This document shows, piece by piece, positions 1 through 11,368 of a DNA stretch of 11,368 nt. Every line of letters begins with the position of its first letter. Position 1 is the first letter of the stretch. The position numbers and the translations under genes are program-made. The notes beneath the pieces are model-generated. The model had not been told where the DNA came from. It did no database searches and saw nothing but the letters and a program-made list of their open reading frames with translations. Source of the stretch: Candidatus Thorarchaeota archaeon (lineage in GTDB: Archaea > Asgardarchaeota > Thorarchaeia > Thorarchaeales > Thorarchaeaceae); contig SDNP01000054.1 of assembly GCA_004524445.1 (NCBI GenBank), forward strand, positions 1 through 11,368, in the 5' to 3' direction.

Positions 1-2160
1 GTGATGTTATACGGGTCATCTGAAGCAGAGAACCATTCATCTGATTTGATGGTTCCTGTAAAACTTCCATCTCCATTGTTGTCTAATTGAAGACTCATTG
101 TGCCCCAACTGACGGTGATAACTGCATTCTCCCAGATTAGTCCGCCATGACGATCATCATAAAGATGTGCCGTAATGTCAAAGGAAGCAGACCAATTTAC
201 AGGGTCGATTGAATCAATCACAAGAGAGGCATCTGTTTCTTGCACTAGAATGATGACCGTGGTGAAGTCATGTGTCTGGAACCCTGACCGAGTTATCTCT
301 ATTCTGATGACATAGACCGGTCCTTCGCCAAACACATTCATGCCCAAGCCACGAGTGTCAACAGTGAAAGCGTATGTACCGTTGTTGTAGTCGCTTGTGT
401 CCATGATTGAGGTATCAAGGTCAACCAGATAATATGATGCAATCTCAGGTGACAATACTGGAGCGTTATCGAGTGTATTGTTCCAGTAGAACCTGACATC
501 AAACACATCAGCGTAGTATTTCTCGTAATAGTCTAGTTCCAGCACTATTTCATTTGGAACAGCCAAAATCCTCACGAATATGGTAGTGGAGTCTGAACTG
601 GCACCAGCCTTTGTTGCTACGATTTCAATCTCGTAGAAGTCCTCTTGAGGTACTGCATCATTTGCATCAAGGGATATGTTATAGATGCCACCAGCGAAAT
701 CATCTAGATTGCCGCTCTGGTCAATGACTGACTCCAAAAACCAGCTATAAGTAACGGTTGCTCCATCGACTGCTGCTCCAATTGATTGGTCCAACAGAAG
801 GATTTCCAGATTAAATGATTGCGTCCAGTAGACTTCTAATGGATTCTCTGCAGAACCATATTCCGCTTCAATAAAAAGTGGCACACGAATCGTTATGGTC
901 AGGGCTACTACATCTGATTCGTGATTGGCTTTGCTAAGATTAAGCTGAAAGATATAGGTTCCGGACTCGAAGGATCCTCCAAGGGTAACTTTGTATATTC
1001 CATCGCCCTCATATGTGAGCGTGACAGTATCACTCCAATTGTGACTGAATGTTGCACCATCAAGTCCAATATTACCCGAAATCCGAGTGTAATTCACTTG
1101 ATAGGTTGCTGACTCTAACCAGTCAATGGTCTGCGAATCCGATCCAACGACTTCAAGATTTGTTGGTGCTCTGGATACCGTTAAGAAAGCTGCCAAAGTT
1201 CCTGTTGCTTGTTGATAGTTATCTTTTGAACAGGTTACTGTTACATTCCAGTCTCCAACAGGTAACAAATCCTTGCCAAAGGTGTATGTGAATTCCGCTC
1301 CAGTTTCGGACAAAGTTCGACTAACATTCAGATATGAAATGCCATCCTTGGTATACCACCTTAATATTACAGATACACCGGTGAGACCAGCGTCAGAAGT
1401 ATTGCCTGGTAAATTGAAAACATACGAAAATGTCAATGAATGAGATGTGATATCCCAATCATAGTTATCCACAGTCAAATCGGTGACAAGCATTGGCACT
1501 TCTTTGATTAGCAATGAGATGGTGAAAGTCTGGTTAACATAATTTCTCTTTTCCAGTGAAATGCTCATAGAGTAGATGCCTACCGCCAAGTCATTCAGAG
1601 CACTAGCGGATAGAGAGTATGTACCATTTCCATTATCCACTAAGTCTCCCGAGCAGCTTGTGCCTATCACTGAGTATGAATATGTTCCGAGATCCGTCAC
1701 ATTTGCATCATTATCGTAGTCATCTAACCAGAATAAATGCGCTGAATGTGTGTTGTAATACTCACTGATTGTATCTGTTTCCTTACCTTCATTTGTTCGA
1801 GCAGGTTTGACGTCGATATAGATTGTCATCGGATTTGGATCGTCATGATCCACGCTATCAGAGTGTGCTCTAACCGTCATTACATATTGACCATCAATAA
1901 CATTCAGTCCCCATGCAGTGGCATTAACAACGATGGTGAAGTTAATTAGCGATGTGCGTGTTATCCAAGTGCCACTACCAGCCCATGTATCTTCGAAATA
2001 GGTAATACCGCCATAAGTGACAGTGATATTAAGCCAAGTTTGAGGTGATACAGCAGATGTGTCATTTTCGCCATCCCTGTCATACCATCCAACCACTAGC
2101 TGAGAATTATTTGTTTTCCACCGAACATTCACAATGCCAACTGTTGAATTCAACTCGGTG
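1..2160 (-). repeat. About seven tandem Ig-like (invasin/Big-like) ~100-aa repeats, continuing beyond the window
   Basis: Recurrent motifs: DNGNGTYSL, EGDGIYKV, DFAGGIYNI, DYNNGTYAF, NNGDGSF; GIYSMSISLEKRNY, GDWNVTVTCSKDNY, GTYIFQLNLSKANH, DFYEIEIVATKAG; DGATVTYSW / DGATFSHNW. Degenerate at the DNA level. Confidence 0.7.
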
Positions 2161-5100
2161 TACGCATCAGAATATGTAGGCGTTGATATGATTATCCAAT
2201 TGAAATACTCCCAGCCATAGTCCACCTTGGCCCCTAAAACCTGTCCGTATTCGTTACCAGAAACGACTGTAATATTGTAGGACACAGGACTATAGTAGGG
2301 AGCGGTTATGTTGCCATGGATATAGTAGAATATAATCCACCCAGTGCTGTTTGTTTTCCCTTGAGCTATGGGGTTTAGTGATGGTGTTCCACCTACTAGT
2401 GTTACGTTGACATCAGCATTGGAAACTGGATAGTTTTCACCGTCCTCTGTTGTCACTCTTATCCTGAGCTGGCTAATTGGAAGTTCAACAGTTTTGGATT
2501 GATAGCCTTGAAGATTGGCTATTGACTCTGTATCATTGAGAGCAGTAGGTGTATCACCATAGAGGTCGTCTTTGGTCACCTCGATACTCCAAGTACCGTT
2601 TACAATCCTATAGAATGTGAACTCTCCGGAGGAGTTTGTCCATTTAGTGATGTGATAACCTGTTTCGTTCTCATTAGTAATAGCCACCATTGCATTCTCA
2701 ACAGGGAGCTCATCCCAGCTCTCTACGTAGATATCGAGTGTGGTGAGAGGCAGTACCCAGTCTGGATGATCAAATGATCCAAGTGAGAATTCGCTGGATG
2801 ATATGGACCAGCTTCCAAACTTAGCCATATCTGAGTAGAGATAGCTATGAACGGGCCCATCATATCTGACGAAGATAGTGTAGTCATCAGCAGGCATTCT
2901 ATAGAATCTCGCCCATCCAGTGCTATTCGTTTCTTCGTAGTGAAGGAATACAGCAGGATTGCTACCATTGGTAACACGGACAGTAGTGGTATCATCCGGG
3001 GTTGCGTCCATAGAGTTACCCATTAAATCTTCGAAGTGAAGACTGAAGCTAGCCATTTCTAATGTGATTTCAATAGGTGTAACCGACCCAGTTATGGCAT
3101 GATCCGAGGTGTTTGTGACCCAAATTGAGCCTGAGGGGCTTGGAGATAACCAATTAGAAGCGTCTATTCTCGTCCTTACTTCGTAGGTTGCATTTAGGAG
3201 CCCTTCAAATACCACAAGGCCATTTGAATCTGTCACATCAGTTCTGTTTCGTCCCTGCTCGTCCAACCAAAGCGTACTATCTGTGGAATTGTATAGAGTG
3301 ATGCTTGCACCTTCGACTGGCACACCATCAAGGTCAACGACGGTGATGTCGAATTCGAACAAGTGACGTTCATCACCCTTTGCAATGACAAGACCATTCT
3401 CATCAGCCTCAGGAGTATATGCAGGCACGTGCCATCCGTATCCTGTGTCTCCTGTTGGGTTATAGGGTGATGAAGTTGAGAATAAGCCAAGGTCAACAAC
3501 ACCAATGCTTGCGTTGGATTCAATATGATAGAGGGTCATGCTTGATGAAACGGGGCGAAATGCTGCCATTCCACCTGCAGGTATTTCAAGAGTTCCATCA
3601 TTGAACCCGGTGATTTTAACTTCTGCATTCTCCAAAGCCACAATCATGAACTTGTAAGAGTTGATACCCCAGAGTTTGAAGGAAGAGCCGAACCGATGTC
3701 CTGAGGTGGTAGGTATCCAATCTCCAGCGTCTCTGGCATTTGTTGGGTCATAGAGACCCTCGACCATGAACATATCTCCAGAATTACGTGCTTTCAGGTG
3801 AAGGATATCCTCTGGATTCGTATCGCTTGCAGTACCAGGACCGATGGACTGAGAGCTATTGGCAAATATTTCCAAGGCGCCGCCGTATGACCAGACTGAA
3901 CCTGCGTTTCTCCACCAGTCCACAATTATCGTGGTTTCTTTTAAGTTTGTGACTCGTGTTCTGTCTTTGGAGTTTCCCATATCAATGGTATAGAATTCAT
4001 CACCAGCGAGTCCACCATCAACTGCGGGATAAAAGCCCCAAATGTCTCGAGCATGGGAAGCGTCATCGTCGCCAGCCCTTATGGATACAGGCTTTGTTGA
4101 ATTTACCTTCTTATAATCAGTGTAGAGAACATCTCCCTTGCTGATGTACTCTCCCGCATCTAAGGTCACTGGCCAATCCGTGTCAGAAACAGAGGTTTGA
4201 TTATAAAATGCCCATCCTGATTCTGCAGAACCAGATATGCTGGTGACCCATACCTCCGTATCATTCTCGTGAGCCTGAACCCAGTACATACCCTCGTTTC
4301 TGTCATCAAAACCTTCAACACCACCGATAATGAAGTGAGTACCTGTTCCATGGCTCATCTCGCTTACTCCAGGGAACCAGTCATTTATTGCAGAATTGGA
4401 GCCCTCGTTACCTTGCCCCATGCTAACTGCCATTGGATAATTGGAATATATTGCATAATAGCCATGGAATAGGGAATAGGAGTAGCTACTCGGCTCATAA
4501 CGAGCAGCATCATATTTGTCAAGAGTACCATAAGGAACATTGCTTGGATATACACTTCCGCTTGTTCCGGACCATCTATCATCAAGGTTCCTGGGATCAT
4601 CCCAGGTCTTACTTGAGGGGTCATACATCTCGATCAGGTAGTTGTTATCATCGTAATAAGATACCAAACTGAGCAGGGAGAATGTGTAGCTCTTGTAGAC
4701 AAATGGAAAGAAGTTCGGATGGCTTACTGACCCAACATCTTCCTTTGCATAGTAAATGTAATAGTTCTCTTCAGTATCTCCTTTTGAAACATTTACCATG
4801 AAGCTGACTCTGGTTGAAAGAACATAGTCACCAGTTGAGTCATAGGTTGTATTCCAAGTTTGGAACGGAAGAGGGGTCCAATCAGGGTTATCATAGTATG
4901 CCACTCTTATCGAGTCCCCGTAGCAGTGACCCTCAGTGAATGTAAGATATAGATGAACAGGAGAAAGTGTGCGTGAGGCTACGTTGGGTTCTGTGAAATT
5001 GAAATAACGTCTGTAAATATATGTGCTATTCCACCAGTTAGCCTCGTCTTGAGTGCCCGCAACCTCTAGATTACCGTGACGGATTTGTAATGAATTATCT

Positions 5101-5216
5101 GCGTCAAGAATTGGATTCTGATTTACAGGATTCGTTGCAGGATTGCCGGTGGCTAGAGGAAGCAACAATACAACAGCCAGCGCAGCTAGAACTAGAAATT
5201 TGGTAGAACGCTTCAC
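1..5216 (-). CDS. Giant secreted/cell-surface glycoprotein (>=1738 aa, 3' end beyond window): signal peptide, DUF2341-like region, IgGFc-binding-like repeats, carboxypeptidase-regulatory-like repeats and Ig-like repeats
   Basis: GTG start at 5216-5214 with SD GGAGGTG (5229-5223). Hand translation gives no in-frame stop down to position 1. The N-terminus MKRSTKFLVLAALAVVLLLPLATG looks like a Sec signal peptide. It is followed by NWWNSTYIYRRYFNF...ENYYIYYAK, repeated TDSNG/TNSTG and DNGNGTY-type beta-sandwich motifs, and about 40 N-x-S/T sequons (hand count). Confidence 0.93.
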   Translation of the reverse strand, partial: MKRSTKFLVLAALAVVLLLPLATGNPATNPVNQNPILDADNSLQIRHGNLEVAGTQDEANWWNSTYIYRRYFNFTEPNVASRTLSPVHLYLTFTEGHCYGDSIRVAYYDNPDWTPLPFQTWNTTYDSTGDYVLSTRVSFMVNVSKGDTEENYYIYYAKEDVGSVSHPNFFPFVYKSYTFSLLSLVSYYDDNNYLIEMYDPSSKTWDDPRNLDDRWSGTSGSVYPSNVPYGTLDKYDAARYEPSSYSYSLFHGYYAIYSNYPMAVSMGQGNEGSNSAINDWFPGVSEMSHGTGTHFIIGGVEGFDDRNEGMYWVQAHENDTEVWVTSISGSAESGWAFYNQTSVSDTDWPVTLDAGEYISKGDVLYTDYKKVNSTKPVSIRAGDDDASHARDIWGFYPAVDGGLAGDEFYTIDMGNSKDRTRVTNLKETTIIVDWWRNAGSVWSYGGALEIFANSSQSIGPGTASDTNPEDILHLKARNSGDMFMVEGLYDPTNARDAGDWIPTTSGHRFGSSFKLWGINSYKFMIVALENAEVKITGFNDGTLEIPAGGMAAFRPVSSSMTLYHIESNASIGVVDLGLFSTSSPYNPTGDTGYGWHVPAYTPEADENGLVIAKGDERHLFEFDITVVDLDGVPVEGASITLYNSTDSTLWLDEQGRNRTDVTDSNGLVVFEGLLNATYEVRTRIDASNWLSPSPSGSIWVTNTSDHAITGSVTPIEITLEMASFSLHFEDLMGNSMDATPDDTTTVRVTNGSNPAVFLHYEETNSTGWARFYRMPADDYTIFVRYDGPVHSYLYSDMAKFGSWSISSSEFSLGSFDHPDWVLPLTTLDIYVESWDELPVENAMVAITNENETGYHITKWTNSSGEFTFYRIVNGTWSIEVTKDDLYGDTPTALNDTESIANLQGYQSKTVELPISQLRIRVTTEDGENYPVSNADVNVTLVGGTPSLNPIAQGKTNSTGWIIFYYIHGNITAPYYSPVSYNITVVSGNEYGQVLGAKVDYGWEYFNWIIISTPTYSDAYTELNSTVGIVNVRWKTNNSQLVVGWYDRDGENDTSAVSPQTWLNITVTYGGITYFEDTWAGSGTWITRTSLINFTIVVNATAWGLNVIDGQYVMTVRAHSDSVDHDDPNPMTIYIDVKPARTNEGKETDTISEYYNTHSAHLFWLDDYDNDANVTDLGTYSYSVIGTSCSGDLVDNGNGTYSLSASALNDLAVGIYSMSISLEKRNYVNQTFTISLLIKEVPMLVTDLTVDNYDWDITSHSLTFSYVFNLPGNTSDAGLTGVSVILRWYTKDGISYLNVSRTLSETGAEFTYTFGKDLLPVGDWNVTVTCSKDNYQQATGTLAAFLTVSRAPTNLEVVGSDSQTIDWLESATYQVNYTRISGNIGLDGATFSHNWSDTVTLTYEGDGIYKVTLGGSFESGTYIFQLNLSKANHESDVVALTITIRVPLFIEAEYGSAENPLEVYWTQSFNLEILLLDQSIGAAVDGATVTYSWFLESVIDQSGNLDDFAGGIYNISLDANDAVPQEDFYEIEIVATKAGASSDSTTIFVRILAVPNEIVLELDYYEKYYADVFDVRFYWNNTLDNAPVLSPEIASYYLVDLDTSIMDTSDYNNGTYAFTVDTRGLGMNVFGEGPVYVIRIEITRSGFQTHDFTTVIILVQETDASLVIDSIDPVNWSASFDITAHLYDDRHGGLIWENAVITVSWGTMSLQLDNNGDGSFTGTIKSDEWFSASDDPYNI
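2170..3360 (-). repeat. Four carboxypeptidase-regulatory/transthyretin-like beta-sandwich repeats
   Basis: ITVVDLDGVPVEGASITL...TDSNGLVVFEGL; LHFEDLMG...TNSTGWARFYRM; IYVESWDELPVENAMVAI...TNSSGEFTFYRI; IRVTTEDGENYPVSNADVNV...TNSTGWIIFYYI. Period about 100 aa; boundaries approximate. Confidence 0.7.
3420..4690 (-). repeat. Four degenerate ~95-aa protein repeats resembling the IgGFc-binding (FCGBP N-terminal) domain
   Basis: Recurring motif sets: LVSYYDDNNYLI / VQAHENDTEVWV / VTNLKETTIIV / IVALENAEVKI; TLDKYD / TLDAGE / LEIFANS / LEIPAGG; IYSNYPMAV / VNSTKPVSI / IESNASIGV; DWFP..GTHF / FYP..GDEF / DWIP..GSSF. Boundaries approximate. Confidence 0.55.
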
Positions 5217-6380
5217 TTATTCCACCTCCATTGTAGCAGAAGCATTAGTCGGATGGAAATTCTTCAGAACTTCCAGATAATGCGTCGCCTGCCTGCTCGG
5301 GATATCCTCATCATTATACAGGTGAACAGTTCGCTCTATCAACCATTCGGGATATACTGTTACAACTTGAGGGCTACAATTCAGCATAATATGTTCACGG
5401 CCCTCCTCATCATTGATTCGAAACACAATGTTTCCTTTCTCAAGTTTCGTAATTACCTTCCTAACCTTGGACTTGTCCGCATCGAGTAGTTGAGGTAGGT
5501 CTTCGGTAAGCTGTGGGCCATCTCGGAGAATTTCAATAAGGTCATAGGCATCAAAGTCAAGGAGATATGTTGCAAGCTCTTGTGCTTCAGTCCATATTGT
5601 GTCAGATAAATCGCGGCGAAGTCGTGCCACGTAATTTCTATGATAGCGCTTAGCAGCACTCAAGTATTGGTCGCTAACCTCAGAAGGTAGTGCTCCTGAT
5701 TTTACCAATTTAAGTGTTGGAGATGATGTCTTCCGGAGAATAAATACTGCTCTGACCAGATAGATTACTTCAGTTGATAATCCCTCAACCCATCCTGTGG
5801 CGATTATGCCCATCTTCACCAAAGGACGAAGAACCATATCTATGTCGATTTTCTTTCCGACTTCTTCAAAGATTATTTGTTCAAGATCGCTCGACTCAAT
5901 CGTACCATTCCGAGTTAATGTCTGAAGAATGGCTCGACGAACGGGATCGTTTAACACGGATGCCTGCTGTTGCTCTGGTGTCATCATGGTATAGCGAGCA
6001 ATCTGTTTGTACAGCTTTGGCACCATATTCTTGTAAATATCGTCTTCAGTGTTCAAGAAAATCTGTGTCGCAATCTCTGGAAGTGCATCTTTGTAGACTT
6101 CGGGATCCTCATCAGGGTCCAGAACCAGAAAAACCATGGAGGGTTTGCCCTTCATGTGCATATTCAAACCGCCATAATACACTGCAAGTTTGAACTCGTC
6201 GAAGGAAAGGGACGTAAACCCAGGCTTCTGAGACTCTTCAGTTTCTCCAAGCGTGGCAATTCCGTATACTCTCATGCTCGTTGTGGGATCCAATCCAGTC
6301 TTGAATTTCTTCGGCGTCTTCGCTGTTACCACCGGACCGAGTTCATCATCCCACTTCAAAACAGCTAATCCTTTGGGCAT
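5217..6380 (-). CDS. Longin/uDENN (NPRL2-like) N-terminal domain plus two winged-helix domains; hypothetical Asgard-type protein
   Basis: 387-aa ORF. The N-terminus GLAVLKWDDELGPVVTAKTP matches the uDENN/NPRL2-type pattern (hydrophobic strand-F/W-D-x-x-x-G-P...P). Two wHTH-like segments: NDPVRRAILQTLTRNG...LRPLVKMGII and YDLIEILRDGP...VRKVITKLEKGNIV. Purine-rich GATGGAGAGA upstream of the ATG. Confidence 0.7.
   Translation of the reverse strand: MPKGLAVLKWDDELGPVVTAKTPKKFKTGLDPTTSMRVYGIATLGETEESQKPGFTSLSFDEFKLAVYYGGLNMHMKGKPSMVFLVLDPDEDPEVYKDALPEIATQIFLNTEDDIYKNMVPKLYKQIARYTMMTPEQQQASVLNDPVRRAILQTLTRNGTIESSDLEQIIFEEVGKKIDIDMVLRPLVKMGIIATGWVEGLSTEVIYLVRAVFILRKTSSPTLKLVKSGALPSEVSDQYLSAAKRYHRNYVARLRRDLSDTIWTEAQELATYLLDFDAYDLIEILRDGPQLTEDLPQLLDADKSKVRKVITKLEKGNIVFRINDEEGREHIMLNCSPQVVTVYPEWLIERTVHLYNDEDIPSRQATHYLEVLKNFHPTNASATMEVE
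5223..5229 (-). promoter_or_regulatory. Shine-Dalgarno site GGAGGTG for the giant surface protein, embedded in the last codons of the upstream gene
   Basis: The minus strand reads ATG GAG GTG GAA TAA GTG AAG. GGAGGTG lies 6 nt before the GTG start. Confidence 0.75.
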
Positions 6381-6635
6381 CTTTACTATCTCTCCATCTT
6401 TCCAATAGAGCCAACTCTGGTCTTAGACTCCGGTTCCAAGGTGGATGGTTCCAGAAACGCTATTCCGTGGAACGCGTCTTCTCATCTGAAACAGCCAGTC
6501 ATATCTGAATGTCCAAGTCCTTGTTTGGCAAAATATGGTCAGACCTGTGTTAAATCTCATAGATAATATGGAATTAATAAGAGAATCCCGTTTATATGGA
6601 GAAAGCTTCCAGATTAGTGGCTTATCTAACGGCTT

Positions 6636-7817
6636 TCATATGCTGTTGCTTTCAAAAATAGTTACAATCATATTATTGCCGAATCCACCAATATTGTGTG
6701 TAAGACCTCTATGTGCGTTCGGTACCTGCAGACTTCCGGGAGCCCTATTTGTGAGTTGCAGGAAGATATCTCGAATCTGAGCAACACCGGTCGCACCCGT
6801 CGGATGGCCCCGTGCCTTCAAGCCTCCAGTTGTGTTGATTGGTATCTTACCGTCAACTTCAACATCTCCCGATTTGATTATTTCAATTCCCTTTCCTTGC
6901 TTAGCTAGCCCCATATCCTCAATGTCGATAATCTCCAAAATAGAGAATGCATCATGAAGTTCGAATACGTCTATGTCTTCAGGGCGTGTTTTTGCCATTC
7001 TGAACGCATCTCTTGCTGCATTCACCGTTGCTGAAAGAGATGTAAGAGACTCTCTATGCTGTACTGCTAAGAAATCAGTTGCATGCCCTATTCCCTTGAA
7101 TGTTGCCGAGTCGCCGATAACACCTAGTTTTCTTGCCTTTTCGGCAGATGCAAGTACAACGCTGGCTGCCCCGTCGCTAGTTGGACAACAATCAAAGAGA
7201 GTAAGGGGGCTTGATACTATTGGGCTTGCATTCACTTTTTCCACAGTGATTTCCTTTTGAAAGTGAGCCAAGGGATTTCTCGCACCGTTTCTATGAGCTT
7301 TTACTGGCACTAAGGATAACTCATCGCGGGTAAGTCCATAATCATGCATATATCGGCGGGCAATTAGGGCCGCCAAGGAAGCTGGTGTTGCTCCGTAGCG
7401 GGCTTCATTCTCCTTGGAAATCATCTTGGCGAGGATAGCGGATGCTCTTTCACGAGATACCTCCGACATCTTCTCCATACCAACGACCAAGACTAATTCA
7501 GCCAAACCAGAACGAATCATAGCAAAACCAGCCTCAACCGCACTTGCACCGGATGAAGGTCCGCTCTCAATACGAGTTCCCCCAGCTGGGACGATGCCCA
7601 ACGAATCAGCCATCAGAGTCGATAAATGACCTATTCCAGTAAATTCATCGGGATTCTGAGAAGCTACCAAGATGTGGTCAATCTTTTCGCCAGACGCCTG
7701 TGCGTCCTCAAGTGCCCTAAGTGAGGCATTTCTGGCGAGGTCTATGATGGATTCTTCCAAGTGCCCGAACTTGGTCATTCCTGCTCCAATGACATGAACA
7801 GATCCCAATATGACCAC
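6636..7817 (-). CDS. Thiolase-fold protein (archaeal/SCP2-type) lacking the catalytic cysteines
   Basis: Motifs VIGAGMTKFG, VGMEKMS, NGARNPLAHFQ, DCCPTSDGAA, ELHDAF, GGLKARGHPTGATG and HNIGG. The true start is probably TTG at 7808 (MGSVHVIGAG...), preceded by AGGTGG at 7819-7814. Confidence 0.9.
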   Translation of the reverse strand: MVILGSVHVIGAGMTKFGHLEESIIDLARNASLRALEDAQASGEKIDHILVASQNPDEFTGIGHLSTLMADSLGIVPAGGTRIESGPSSGASAVEAGFAMIRSGLAELVLVVGMEKMSEVSRERASAILAKMISKENEARYGATPASLAALIARRYMHDYGLTRDELSLVPVKAHRNGARNPLAHFQKEITVEKVNASPIVSSPLTLFDCCPTSDGAASVVLASAEKARKLGVIGDSATFKGIGHATDFLAVQHRESLTSLSATVNAARDAFRMAKTRPEDIDVFELHDAFSILEIIDIEDMGLAKQGKGIEIIKSGDVEVDGKIPINTTGGLKARGHPTGATGVAQIRDIFLQLTNRAPGSLQVPNAHRGLTHNIGGFGNNMIVTIFESNSI

Positions 7818-8336
7818 CTACTCGATTAGAATCAATAAGTCACTAGGTACAACGGACGCTCCGGGCTCCACATTTACCTCTCTAATCCTACCAGATTTGG
7901 GTGCTTTCAGTTCATTGAACATTTTCATGGCTTCGAGAATGCATAATGTATCGCCGTCTTGTACCGAATCATTGAGAGCAACATGGACCTCTGTTATTTT
8001 CCCAGGCATGGGAGGATAGACCCCTCCAGGATTTTTGGTTCCCGACGATAGCGGTGCTGAAACAGGTGTATCTGCCTTCTTAGCCCGCACCCACTCTAGT
8101 GTGTGTTTTTCTCCGTCCAGTTGGATTGATATAGTATTGCCAGATCGTTTGAGTACTTCCACTCGGTGGTCCGTAGTCCTGTTATTCACCGTCCAGATGC
8201 CATCTTCTCCCTTTGTGGGTTTCATGGTGAAGCTTTGGTCGCCAATTTTGACAACAATTACTCCACCTTCATCCAACAAGTCAACCTCTACATCATAAGT
8301 CACATCTGTAAATTCGGCTTTATACTCAGGACTCAT
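7818..8336 (-). CDS. Stand-alone biotin carboxyl carrier protein with an N-terminal beta-rich (BT-like) domain
   Basis: PMPGKI...VQDGDTLCILEAMKMFNELKAPKSGRI...PGASV; the biotinylated Lys lies in EAMKM (K138). An Ala/Pro/Ser linker follows an ~85-aa N-terminal domain. Confidence 0.92.
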   Translation of the reverse strand: MSPEYKAEFTDVTYDVEVDLLDEGGVIVVKIGDQSFTMKPTKGEDGIWTVNNRTTDHRVEVLKRSGNTISIQLDGEKHTLEWVRAKKADTPVSAPLSSGTKNPGGVYPPMPGKITEVHVALNDSVQDGDTLCILEAMKMFNELKAPKSGRIREVNVEPGASVVPSDLLILIE

Positions 8337-8425
8337 CGGTAATCACTTGACAGGTTTTCATATTAGCGGGCATTTTAGTTCTACCCTCATTTCATTCATC
8401 GTATTTGCTTATCATATTGATTGTA

Positions 8426-9994
8426 CTACATGCGTCGTGTCTGCTCTCTTCTTCCAGAGGCAACCCATGGTGAATCTACCTTGGCCCAGCTGCTTGTCGA
8501 AGCAGGGATAGGTCGTCTTTGTCCGTCTTCTCGCCCATTCGAAGTCCAAGTATCACTTGTACTGGAGGAGGCGACTGCAAATCCACCCCGCTTCTTCATC
8601 ATATGAAGGACCGATGCCATAATGGCGAGCTGATTTTCAGGAGTCATATCACCATGGTGCTTTCGTTTTGACTTACGTACGAGAAAGTCAAGTGCATATT
8701 GAGGATAGAGGGCATAAGATATTTCATCCCGGCGGTCATGTTCAATATCCTTGAGAGCCTTTCGTGCTTCAGGAAGCTCAGGTGGAAGTAGGCTTGCAGG
8801 TCGCTCTTCAAGGGTTTCTTCATCCCCAATGATTTTTTGCCGGATTTCGGGGTCTAGTGGGGCTGGGGGGCGTCCATAGAAACCTCGGACATACTGCTTG
8901 ACTTCATGGGGGACCATCTTGTAGCGTTCGCCAGTGATAACATTCATCGTTGCCTGAGTGCCAACAATTTGGGACGATGGGGTCACTAGTGGAGGATAAC
9001 CCAAATCAGCTCGGACTCTAGGAACTTCTTGAAGTACCTCGTCATACCGATCCAAGGCGCCCTGTTCTCTAAGCTGGTTATCTAGATTCGATAACATCCC
9101 TCCGGGAATCTGCCATATCAGAACCTGTGGATTTACCCCCTTAAGACTGCCTTCGAATTCTGTGTAGTTCCGTCTGATGTCTCTGAAATAATCAGCAATC
9201 TCGGATAGAAGATTGACGTCGAGACCTGTGTCCCTTTGTGTCCCCTTCAGAGATTCTACTATAGACTCTACAGCCGGTTGAGAAGTCGCCATAGAAAGTG
9301 GAGAAATTGCGCAGTCCACAACATCAACGCCAGCCTCTGCGCCCTTCAGATATGCCATCGAGGCCATACCACTAGTGTAATGTGAGTGAAGCTGAATTGG
9401 GATGTCCAGCTCGTCTTTCAACCTCTTGACTAAGTCATAAGCGGCGGTGGGGGTGATTAACCCGGCCATATCTTTGATGCAAATGGAGTCTGCGTCTAAC
9501 GCGTATAGTTCTTTGGCTTTCTCTACGAATCGCTCATTGTTGTGAACCGGACTAAGAGTATAACAGAAACTTGCCTGAACATGTCCGCCTTCACGCTTTA
9601 CAAACCGCATTGATGGTTCCATATTTCTTACATCGTTTAGTGCATCGAAGATTCTGAATATGTCAATGCCAGCTTTGACAGCCTCTTCTATGAATGCTTC
9701 AAGGACATCGTCACTATATTGACGATACCCAACAATATTCGACCCTCTAAGTAGCATCTGGAATGGGGTTTTTGGCATTACGTCCTTTAAATTCTCAACA
9801 CGTTCCCACGGGTCCTCGTCCAAGAAGCGCATCATGCTATCAAACGTTGCTCCACCCCACATCTCTAGTGAATGGTATCCAACCTGATCAATTGTTTCAC
9901 ATATAGGTAGCATGTGCTCAGTGCGCATTCGTGTTGCAATCAATGATTGATGTGCATCGCGAAGGGTGGTATCAGTAATCTTCAGTTTCGTCAT
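8426..9994 (-). CDS. Pyruvate/oxaloacetate carboxyltransferase (PycB / OadA / transcarboxylase 5S family), no biotinyl domain
   Basis: Motifs DTTLRDAHQSLIATRM, EMWGGATFD, FQMLLRG, FRIFDALND, CIKDMAG, LHSH, QIPGGMLSN and LGYPPLVTPSSQIVG are all intact. No AMKM motif. Symbol left blank because pycB, oadA and 5S cannot be told apart from the sequence alone. Confidence 0.93.
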   Translation of the reverse strand: MTKLKITDTTLRDAHQSLIATRMRTEHMLPICETIDQVGYHSLEMWGGATFDSMMRFLDEDPWERVENLKDVMPKTPFQMLLRGSNIVGYRQYSDDVLEAFIEEAVKAGIDIFRIFDALNDVRNMEPSMRFVKREGGHVQASFCYTLSPVHNNERFVEKAKELYALDADSICIKDMAGLITPTAAYDLVKRLKDELDIPIQLHSHYTSGMASMAYLKGAEAGVDVVDCAISPLSMATSQPAVESIVESLKGTQRDTGLDVNLLSEIADYFRDIRRNYTEFEGSLKGVNPQVLIWQIPGGMLSNLDNQLREQGALDRYDEVLQEVPRVRADLGYPPLVTPSSQIVGTQATMNVITGERYKMVPHEVKQYVRGFYGRPPAPLDPEIRQKIIGDEETLEERPASLLPPELPEARKALKDIEHDRRDEISYALYPQYALDFLVRKSKRKHHGDMTPENQLAIMASVLHMMKKRGGFAVASSSTSDTWTSNGREDGQRRPIPASTSSWAKVDSPWVASGRREQTRRM

Positions 9995-10100
9995 GGCTTA
10001 ACGTAGCTAGGACTACCGTGATAGTATATAGTAGTTCTGCTGCGTTCCGCTTTTCGGAATATCATCATGAGAAAAGAATCTCGCATTTCTAATTCCTTAA

Positions 10101-10361
10101 GTGAAGAAAACGGGAGAAAAGAACCGAAATAACATGAATAATGAAAAGGTGTGGGGCTTTGAGGGTTGTGGCTGTATGTGGACTTTTTTCAAGAACCGCG
10201 ATATGGCATGTTCTAATGCGGGAGATAATACCGTTTGGGAAGTCACTCTTGAGCGTGCATATGAGCTTGATAATAAACGGAGGCAGGAGCTAGACTTCGA
10301 CAAGATTACTCTAGAGGAATTCAAGGAATGCGTCGACCACCCGATGTATTGTAACGAATAA
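10101..10361 (+). CDS. Small Cys-rich hypothetical protein (probable start ATG 10134, 75 aa)
   Basis: Protein-like composition (KVWGFEGCGCMWTFF...VWEVTLERAYELD...ITLEEFKECVDHPMYCNE). It fills the gap between divergent genes in the same orientation as the downstream genes. Confidence 0.6.
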   Translation: MKKTGEKNRNNMNNEKVWGFEGCGCMWTFFKNRDMACSNAGDNTVWEVTLERAYELDNKRRQELDFDKITLEEFKECVDHPMYCNE

Positions 10362-10458
10362 GAGACCCATTTCGCTATCTCGGGATACTACTTATGTAAA
10401 TCCAAGGATCTATCCCACTTTTGAACCGATCTACACATCATCTACCAATAGGCTTTAG

Positions 10459-11118
10459 ATGCCGCCAGATGTTTGGAATTCCGGAATCGGAAGTGACATG
10501 ATGAAGAACATCATTTTCAACCCTAATGTGTATAGATTTCTGTATTCTGTGGACCGCTTGTTTCCAGATAATCAAGTAGAGAAGTCAGTCCTTGATTGTG
10601 GAGCAGGCGGCAAGATACCTCCATTGGGTCTTCTGCATAAACTTGGCTTTGATACATGCGGAATTGATATCTTAGATGAGCAGATTGAGATGGTCAGACG
10701 GTTTGAAGAGGAGCATGATGTAGACCTCAATATACAGAAAGCAGATATGACAGAGATTCCTTTCGATGATGAGAGCTTCGGGTATGTCTACTCGCAGAAT
10801 TCTATTTTTCATCTAACCAAATATGATACAGCAAAAGCCATGCATGAAATGAAGAGGGTCCTAAGACCCCAAGGGTTTCTGTATGTGAATTTTTTGTCCG
10901 TTAAAGATGAAGGCTACGGAGAGGGGGAAGAAGTTGGACCGGGCGAATGGAGGGCTTTGGAACATGGCGAGTCCACGGTCCATAGTTACTATGGGGACGG
11001 AGAACCAGATCAATACTTCGCAGATACAAGAATCATCCTTAGAGAAAAGAGAATTCTCGACTCACGAAATCATAATCGAAAGATGGTGTATATTGAATAC
11101 ATTGCGAGAAAGGCATGA
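10459..11118 (+). CDS. Class I SAM-dependent methyltransferase
   Basis: Motif I VLDCGAGG, GID, ADMTEIPFDDESFGYVYS, and EMKRVLRPQGFLYVNF. The start may be ATG 10498 or 10501, after GGAAGTGAC. Confidence 0.9.
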   Translation: MPPDVWNSGIGSDMMKNIIFNPNVYRFLYSVDRLFPDNQVEKSVLDCGAGGKIPPLGLLHKLGFDTCGIDILDEQIEMVRRFEEEHDVDLNIQKADMTEIPFDDESFGYVYSQNSIFHLTKYDTAKAMHEMKRVLRPQGFLYVNFLSVKDEGYGEGEEVGPGEWRALEHGESTVHSYYGDGEPDQYFADTRIILREKRILDSRNHNRKMVYIEYIARKA

Positions 11119-11183
11119 AATTGACATAATCCTCATTTTTCCGCTTCCTCTTTATTCATTAACTCAAATGCAAATGCCAGTTT

Positions 11184-11368
11184 ATGGAAAAAGCAACGTT
11201 TGGCGGCGGATGCTTTTGGTGCGTCGAGGCCGTCTTTGAAAAAATGAAGGGCGTAAGGTCAGTAGTATCCGGGTATGCAGGCGGCCATGTTGAGAACCCA
11301 ACATACCAGCAGGTCACTACCGGTAAGACAGGTCACGCCGAAGTCGCTCAGATAGAGTACGACCCAGA
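11184..11368 (+). CDS. msrA: Peptide-methionine (S)-S-oxide reductase MsrA (5' partial)
   Basis: Hand translation from ATG 11184: [61 protein letters not shown]. It contains the GCFWC, SGYAGG and TGHAE signatures. Not in the ORF track because it runs off the window. Confidence 0.97.

Follow-up and report, generated by a model that had tools for sequence, protein, structure and literature searches.

Transcarboxylase-type genes of a Thorarchaeota archaeon stand beside a thiolase homologue that lacks both catalytic cysteines

Methylmalonyl-CoA carboxytransferase, the transcarboxylase of Propionibacterium freudenreichii (EC 2.1.3.1), is assembled from 12S, 5S and 1.3S subunits, and thiolase-fold proteins associated with DUF35 proteins are known both from the archaeal thiolase/HMG-CoA synthase/DUF35 complex and from the cysteine-less retro-aldolases Ltp2-ChsH2 and Sal-Shy. 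The Ltp2/Sal aldolases are defined by a YD[HC][FY] motif with a catalytic tyrosine, Ltp2 releases propionyl-CoA by retro-aldol cleavage, and the related T. brucei protein SLP has a feeble malonyl-CoA decarboxylase activity (PMC12329534). Here we analyze a locus in which genes of both kinds meet: the window, that is, the entire 11,368-nt contig SDNP01000054.1 (C17) of the Candidatus Thorarchaeota metagenome-assembled genome (MAG) GCA_004524445.1, encodes a carboxyltransferase (CT), a stand-alone biotin carrier (BCCP) and a thiolase-fold protein without the two catalytic cysteines, which we call Pro-thiolase (Table 1). The system to which CT and BCCP belong resembles the P. freudenreichii enzyme in its CT of about 520 aa with PYC_OADA/HMGL domains and no fused carrier, its small separate carrier with an EAMKM motif, its Carboxyl_trans subunit of about 520 aa (MmdA/12S/PccB family), the lack of any involvement of biotin carboxylase, and the methylmalonyl-CoA mutase and epimerase genes nearby. 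It differs in that the host is archaeal, the carrier, at 172 aa, exceeds 1.3S in length and includes an all-beta N-terminal domain, the operon holds an extra thiolase-fold gene, and CT scores 541 bits against the curated 5S equivalog model (under its cut-off of 827). The same gene set, consisting of a methylmalonyl-CoA decarboxylase-type carboxyltransferase, BCCP, pyruvate carboxylase subunit B and an associated biotin ligase, has been used to infer propionate metabolism in Asgard archaea, and passages of that paper dealing with the set make no mention that we found of a thiolase-like operon gene (Imachi et al., 2020; PMC7015854).

The domains and motifs of CT and BCCP are those of a biotin-dependent carboxyl-transfer enzyme. 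CT matches Pfam PYC_OADA (8.7e-54) and HMGL-like, its motifs RDAHQS (residue 12), KDMAG (Lys174) and HSHYT (residue 203) are intact, and no biotinyl domain (Biotin_lipoyl) was found within its 522 aa in a Pfam search. We take Lys174 to be the carbamylated, metal-bridging lysine, by analogy with the solved 5S and pyruvate carboxylase CT domains. Orthologues of the same length and 69-91% identity are encoded by more than 35 genomes of the Thorarchaeota family (Thor family). BCCP consists of an all-beta N-terminal domain (about residues 1-85), a linker and a biotinyl domain (Pfam Biotin_lipoyl, 2e-17), and the sequence E135-A-M-K-M139 around the expected biotinylation site is invariant in 38 orthologues. 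In a fold search with the AlphaFold2 (AF2) model of the whole protein (pLDDT 76), the biotinyl domain filled the match list, and the result therefore concerns this domain: residues 103-172 matched BCCP of P. horikoshii with a Z-score of 14.4 and the 1.3S subunit of transcarboxylase with one of 13.5.

The NCBIfam models that score highest against CT are PycB (741 bits, a domain model covering residues 1-453) and OadA (705 and 684 bits), which would suit CT and BCCP as a PycB divided over two genes, belonging to a pyruvate carboxylase of two subunits, or as the alpha subunit of an oxaloacetate decarboxylase that pumps Na+, in either case with partner genes at another site. The gene inventories make such an assignment extremely improbable: Biotin_carb_C was found in 0 out of 61 Thor-family genomes by a search that was positive in 13 out of 14 control genomes, and OAD_beta (PF03977) was found neither in the MAG nor in the complete Thor genome CP070761.1, the two genomes that this search covered. 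The complete genome encodes one Carboxyl_trans protein and a single biotin carrier, and no biotin carboxylase or OadB was found in it. A 12S, a 5S and a carrier make up the only biotin enzyme that these genomes can build, and this enzyme is thus a transcarboxylase. Judged by their sequences, CT and BCCP are 5S- and 1.3S-type subunits of a methylmalonyl-CoA:pyruvate transcarboxylase, which appears to be the sole biotin enzyme of these Asgard archaea. An earlier note on this DNA, made from its letters and open reading frames (ORFs), had described CT and BCCP as transcarboxylase-like, with neither biotin carboxylase nor Na+ pump, and the inventories agree with that description.

The subunit that would complete such an enzyme is missing from the MAG. 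No gene for biotin carboxylase, OadB, 12S, DUF35 or HMG-CoA synthase lies within the window, and a Pfam profile search of the whole MAG (2.79 Mb in 64 contigs; completeness 90%, contamination 5.4%) returned zero matches to Biotin_carb_C, Carboxyl_trans and OAD_beta. The contig, however, stops inside msrA, 1.37 kb past the CT/BCCP/thiolase cluster. The truncated MsrA is 95% identical to MsrA of the same-genus genome. In the closest relative (thiolase 87% identical), the same cluster is followed by a methyltransferase gene, msrA, 12S and the genes for RNase HII and a biotin ligase. The 12S gene, next to msrA, encodes a 530-aa Carboxyl_trans protein that matches MmdA/12S over its full length (TIGR01117 mmdA, 853 bits). 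Further on in the same-genus genome, G144, and within 19 kb, lie the genes for methylmalonyl-CoA epimerase (MCEE), the mutase large subunit, MeaB and the B12-binding subunit. A near-identical contig, L001, shares the G144 order msrA, 12S, RNase HII, BirA. For at least 31 kb beyond msrA in G144, no gene has an orthologue in the MAG, and this includes RNase HII, which to our knowledge is needed by all archaea. The region is therefore most probably missing from the assembly and not from the organism, and with the window being a complete contig that ends inside msrA, the absence of 12S is most probably an effect of the contig edge and of a gap in the MAG. In our view, CT and BCCP are very probably subunits of a transcarboxylase, and the lack of 12S is very probably an artefact of assembly.

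The wider distribution of 12S points the same way. Carboxyl_trans is present in 53 out of 61 Thor-family genomes and in 22 of the 23 high-quality ones; six family loci have 12S immediately upstream of CT, seven others have the two genes no more than about 6 kb apart, and operons with the order biotin ligase-12S-CT-BCCP occur in three other Asgard families (f12, f13 and f18), in which Pro-thiolase was not found. The list of absent partners in the earlier note is true of the window, but 12S is present in most relatives and, as described below, DUF35 lies about 12.3 kb downstream. Its proposal of a module without a CoA-side carboxyltransferase also falls, with a canonical 12S/MmdA-type gene beside or near the cluster in relatives, and its more cautious remark that partners could be encoded elsewhere proved to be right. 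The same note had offered as a speculation that the thiolase handles the acyl-CoA side of the reaction. In such a new kind of transcarboxylase, the oxyanion hole of the thiolase would hold an acyl-CoA enolate to which carboxybiotin passes CO2. This idea draws on the thioester-polarising residues that Pro-thiolase retains, on its tight linkage to BCCP and on the lack of a Carboxyl_trans match in this MAG; but the missing 12S is most probably an assembly gap, canonical 12S is found across the family, including the complete genome and often beside CT, other Asgard families run thiolase-less 12S-5S-BCCP operons, and Pro-type homologues (those with Pro at the nucleophile position) occur in genomes where no CT was found. 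Nothing thus calls for a thiolase to provide the half-reaction on the acyl-CoA side. We also know of no thiolase whose active site admits biotin, and consider this role for Pro-thiolase very improbable.

Pro-thiolase itself is a thiolase-fold protein (Pfam Thiolase_N and Thiolase_C_1; NCBIfam PRK06064, 428 bits) in which both catalytic cysteines of the family are replaced. The nucleophilic cysteine is replaced by Pro87 (ESGPSSG) and the cysteine of the HDCF loop by Ala290 (HDAF); the three aligned paralogues from the same genome carry the nucleophile Cys and HDCF at these positions. The HDCF-loop cysteine is the acid/base residue of SCP2-type and archaeal thiolases (PMC12329534). The motif GPS[SA]G is present in 120 out of 120 nearest database homologues (63-87% identical), and Pro87 is therefore no sequencing slip; GPSSG and HDAF recur in every genome-derived orthologue. 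The cysteine-less state of the protein, already read from the letters by the earlier note, is thus secure. Position 87 is Cys in 55/55 canonical relatives versus Pro in 40/40 family members, and of the small number of positions that distinguish these two sets, C87P and C290A are the only ones fixed in each. By contrast with these two sites, H288, D289, F291, N328, H338 and P339 are invariant in family members and canonical thiolases alike, so the oxyanion-hole His (H338, in GHP) and Asn (N328) are kept. Superposition of the AF2 model (pLDDT 94) on 6ET9, the acetoacetyl-CoA thiolase of M. thermolithotrophicus, gives a TM-score of 0.95 and a root-mean-square deviation of 1.5 Å. With the nucleophile lost no acyl-enzyme can form, and hence neither thiolysis nor Claisen condensation is open to the protein. 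Proline lacks a backbone NH, and in thiolases the NH at the nucleophile position is part of the second oxyanion hole. Its residues give Pro-thiolase the look of an enzyme in which binding and polarisation of a CoA thioester are retained.

The closest solved folds are the thiolase of the archaeal thiolase/HMG-CoA synthase/DUF35 complex (6ET9/6ESQ) and P. furiosus 7YVY, at 36-41% identity. Pro-thiolase shares with them its length, the GHP and HNxGG motifs and a DUF35 gene in the neighbourhood, but differs in the Cys-to-Pro change at the nucleophile site, the Cys-to-Ala change in HDCF and the lack of an adjacent HMG-CoA synthase gene. It resembles the Ltp2-ChsH2 and Sal-Shy retro-aldolases in its cysteine-less thiolase fold and, by synteny, in a putative association with DUF35, and unlike Ltp2, Sal and T. 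brucei SLP, with their YD[HC][FY] motif and catalytic Tyr, it has HDAF, at an identity of 22-26%. S. tokodaii ST0096 (4YZO; Ser and HDMA) also lacks both cysteines and belongs to the same doubly cysteine-less group (37-39% identity). No functional report on ST0096 or on Pro-type thiolases was found in the literature, and a preprint on archaeal fatty acid synthesis (FAS) concerns Cys-bearing ketothiolases. A substitute for methylmalonyl-CoA epimerase was considered as a role for Pro-thiolase and rejected, as a canonical epimerase gene (TIGR03081, above cut-off) adjoins the mutase in G001, G144 and f13 genomes. The same genome also encodes a second paralogue without either cysteine (ENGGNTG, HDAF; 420 aa; 28% identical) at C63:17505-18767 (+), as well as two canonical Cys/HDCF thiolases, at C1:43602-44768 and C63:39921-41105, each followed by a DUF35-like ORF.

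Linkage of the Pro-thiolase gene to the biotin genes extends well beyond the window. The order CT-BCCP-Pro-thiolase is found in 30/30 family loci collected around CT and in 16 out of 17 informative GenBank loci. In more than 45 genomes of at least 16 genera, Pro-thiolase either starts 0-14 bp past the end of BCCP or overlaps with it. Among 43 sampled family genomes, 37 contain both CT and Pro-thiolase and 3 contain neither. The prospect raised in the earlier note that the thiolase-like gene would prove unlinked to CT/BCCP in other genomes thus fails. In G156 (L123, C4), the Pro-thiolase gene at 5210-6374 is split into ORFs of 279 and 129 aa by a frameshift or assembly error, and CT, BCCP and the downstream DUF35 gene are intact there.

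Every one of the 28 family genomes with Pro-thiolase and a specific DUF35 gene (107-125 aa; OB_ChsH2_C plus zinc ribbon) on one contig has the DUF35 gene downstream and co-oriented. Six genomes have it 0.1-0.7 kb away, four at about 3 kb and eighteen at 7.6-20.5 kb, and in each locus inspected the next gene encodes an acyl-CoA dehydrogenase (ACAD). More distant Pro-types likewise adjoin DUF35-like genes. The end of contig C38 of this MAG (66484-66910) and the start of the window (1-432) are collinear with G144 and have an overlap of about 430 bp, and the contigs should therefore join, inside a giant surface-protein gene. This places DUF35 (C38:60418-60795) and ACAD (C38:59158-60342) about 12.3 kb downstream of Pro-thiolase, the same spacing as in G144. 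The intervening cassette of about 12 kb (window 3-6380 (-) plus C38:60800-66910) encodes the 387-aa protein, a giant surface protein (about 2300 aa), an Arf-like GTPase (293 aa) and three further proteins with lengths of 189, 125 and 469 aa, of which the 469-aa one is a coiled-coil protein. In a Pfam search, the 293-aa protein matched Arf alone and the 387-aa protein had no match. The cassette sits between Pro-thiolase and DUF35/ACAD in most Thor genomes. In the simplest history, which is also the most likely one, an ancestral Thor operon CT-BCCP-ProThiolase-DUF35-ACAD was later split by the cassette. One Thor genome (L011, 11408-21167) has, downstream of the thiolase gene, two tandem copies of the gene pair for a 388-aa protein and a giant protein.

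A quick FastTree phylogeny, unrooted and with a midpoint root for drawing only, places all Pro-types in one clade (41 representatives, local support 100) in which both cysteines are lacking throughout, with the Thor Pro-thiolases as a nested subclade (12 rows, support 100). If the root lies outside the doubly cysteine-less clade, the loss of the cysteines predates recruitment beside BCCP. A single origin of the Pro substitution was rejected, as the FastTree topology calls for 8 changes, of which 4 or more are forced; the solid groupings in it are the broader clade and the Thor subclade alone. Contig L013 (3154-6034) encodes a distant Pro-type (47% identical) followed by a DUF35-like gene; this 8.3-kb contig carries haloarchaeal-type regulators but no CT or BCCP, and the Pro-type gene is one gene away from a divergent biotin ligase gene.

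Together, these observations lead us to propose, with a probability of roughly 60%, that the locus combines transcarboxylase 5S and 1.3S genes with a DUF35-partnered, non-thiolytic acyl-CoA enzyme. The transcarboxylase would move a carboxyl group between (S)-methylmalonyl-CoA/propionyl-CoA and oxaloacetate/pyruvate with neither ATP nor a Na+ pump, and its 12S/MmdA-type CoA-side subunit would be encoded just past the contig end, with the biotin ligase and then the epimerase, mutase and MeaB. Pro-thiolase would be co-transcribed with BCCP without being the missing CoA-side half. It would derive from an older archaeal DUF35-type clade that lost both cysteines and kept the His/Asp/Asn framework for binding thioesters, and together with DUF35 it may convert an acyl-CoA without a covalent intermediate, for example by decarboxylating it or by cleaving it in a retro-aldol manner, in a reaction that would feed or drain the propionyl-/methylmalonyl-CoA pool handled by the transcarboxylase. 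For this part taken separately, that Pro-thiolase is a DUF35-partnered, non-thiolytic acyl-CoA enzyme tied metabolically to that pool, we put the odds at about even. It corresponds to the weaker alternative of the earlier note, that the thiolase acts next in a pathway touching acyl-CoA metabolism, which we favour; the parallel with ketosynthases that become decarboxylases by a Cys-to-Gln change is an analogy only. In its most far-reaching form, Pro-thiolase would be an active enzyme of an undescribed kind that was recruited into the Thor operon, that makes or consumes propionyl-/methylmalonyl-CoA non-covalently with DUF35 and that, in the boldest version, meets carboxy-BCCP as a second acyl-CoA site. 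We consider this quite unlikely; if true, a function would for the first time be assigned within a wide clade of cysteine-free archaeal 'thiolases', S. tokodaii ST0096 among them.

Several observations weigh against the proposed explanation. This genome itself yielded no 12S gene, and the case for it rests on relatives. Pro-thiolase has no obvious general base for proton abstraction, and the Tyr-based motif (YDHF/YDCY) of the characterised cysteine-less aldolases Ltp2 and Sal is absent from it; Ltp2 and SLP indicate what chemistry may be possible in such active sites, but Pro-thiolase shares neither motif. The putative partnership with DUF35 is a matter of synteny, and the match of the ACAD to acryloyl-CoA reductase is generic (343 bits versus a cut-off of 640). 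In addition, G153, G171 and the GenBank MAG L025 keep an intact Pro-thiolase without adjacent CT/BCCP, and genomes of family f19, in which CT was not found, encode a Pro-type of 48-49% identity (GPASG, HDAF), so that the function of Pro-thiolase may be independent of the biotin enzyme. CT was not found in G153 (81% complete) or G171 (88% complete), where it may be lost or may lie in an assembly gap, nor was it found near the 12S gene of G171. In the sublineage of G153, G171 and L025, Pro-thiolase stands directly behind the giant surface-protein gene.

These genomes, together with the DUF35-bearing contig that has haloarchaeal-type regulators and no CT, are what one would expect if Pro-thiolase, DUF35 and ACAD form a separate acyl-CoA module, for instance for a beta-oxidation-like reaction or side-chain cleavage, that is 3' of the transcarboxylase genes by chance and has no functional coupling to biotin chemistry. 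Such a module would also fit a doubly cysteine-less clade that is older and wider than the linkage to CT/BCCP, and transcarboxylase operons in f12, f13 and f18 that lack Pro-thiolase. We nevertheless consider it fairly unlikely, as the short or overlapping BCCP-thiolase junction across so many genera points to selected co-transcription, CT and Pro-thiolase occur together in most of the sampled family genomes, and the methylmalonyl-CoA theme of the neighbourhood suits an enzyme of CoA esters.

The loss of both catalytic cysteines, the translational adjacency to BCCP and the fact that the closest solved relative works within a DUF35-scaffolded multienzyme complex could instead indicate a catalytically dead scaffold that tethers 12S, 5S or BCCP, comparable to DUF35/thiolase in the thiolase/HMG-CoA synthase complex. 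This is decidedly unlikely: the remaining active-site residues are invariant over 40-87% identity, which would be unusual for a pure scaffold, and the transcarboxylase operons of three other families do without Pro-thiolase. A dedicated thiolase-docking module in the N-terminal domain of BCCP was likewise rejected, since the same pattern is common to the BCCPs of thiolase-less Asgard operons. A complex prediction for the Pro-thiolase dimer with BCCP scored 0.00, which speaks neither for nor against binding.

The module first described thus comes down to a known type of enzyme operon in a lineage-specific form, with a strongly conserved cysteine-free thiolase homologue as an extra member. For annotation, this means that Thorarchaeota CT and BCCP are better named transcarboxylase 5S and 1.3S than pyruvate carboxylase B or oxaloacetate decarboxylase, and that partner genes absent from a short MAG contig should not be taken as biology. 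A transcarboxylase ties pyruvate/oxaloacetate to the methylmalonyl-CoA/succinyl-CoA branch without ATP and thus bears on published models of Asgard fermentation and syntrophy. The puzzle is that a thiolase homologue without either cysteine has been kept behind a biotin carrier across at least 16 genera, and the collinearity CT-BCCP-ProThiolase-(cassette)-DUF35-ACAD offers a concrete and cheap set of proteins for testing.

Table 1. Positions of genes, key codons and a candidate promoter element in the window (contig SDNP01000054.1).
Feature	Position	Strand	Basis or remark
5S-type pyruvate/oxaloacetate carboxyltransferase (CT), 522 aa	8426..9994	-	Pfam/NCBIfam domains
Lys174 codon in KDMAG of CT	9473..9475	-	
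Stand-alone biotin carrier (BCCP), 172 aa	7818..8336	-	Pfam Biotin_lipoyl
Lys138 codon in EAMKM of BCCP, expected biotinylation site	7923..7925	-	
Thiolase-fold protein without both catalytic cysteines (Pro-thiolase), 393 aa	6636..7817	-	Pfam, NCBIfam, AF2
Pro87 codon (CCT), nucleophile-Cys position, ESGPSSG	7557..7559	-	
Ala290 codon (GCA), acid/base-Cys position of SCP2-type HDCF loop (here HDAF)	6948..6950	-	
387-aa protein, no family match	5217..6380	-	
Giant Ig-like ORF, runs off contig start	3..5216	-	
Methyltransferase, divergent	10459..11118		upstream of CT
msrA, first 61 codons, cut by contig end	11184..11366	+	synteny anchor for expected 12S position
Candidate TATA-like box ACTATATAC, about 30-38 nt upstream of CT start codon	10021..10035	-	read from sequence

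The minus strand of the window holds five genes (CT, BCCP, the thiolase-fold gene, the 387-aa gene and the giant Ig-like ORF). The ORF coordinates confirm the layout given in the earlier note, with CT, BCCP and the thiolase-like gene co-oriented in that order, gaps of 89 and 0 bp between them, a 255-bp gap between the thiolase-like gene and the next gene (5217-6380), and a divergent neighbour on the other side. The TATA-like box ACTATATAC upstream of CT is a possible archaeal operon promoter. The closest homologues bear database names that agree with the Thorarchaeota placement of the contig. Between CT and the methyltransferase lies a Cys-rich ORF of 86 aa (10101-10361, +) that is 67% conserved in the congener, versus 83-95% for its neighbours; at this position in the congener the gene caller picked a 103-aa ORF on the opposite strand.

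Salt-lake metatranscriptome contigs from a close relative include stretches of CT, BCCP and the spacer between them as well as of the 387-aa gene, and leave the body of the thiolase uncovered; contigs of this kind are uninformative on absence, level and operon ends. Pieces of CT, BCCP and the 387-aa gene that are 90-99% identical to the window (5000-11368) were found in salt-lake metatranscriptome and freshwater-sediment metagenome contigs, and close relatives therefore occur in salt-lake and freshwater-sediment samples. One metagenomic DNA contig extends beyond the end of the window.

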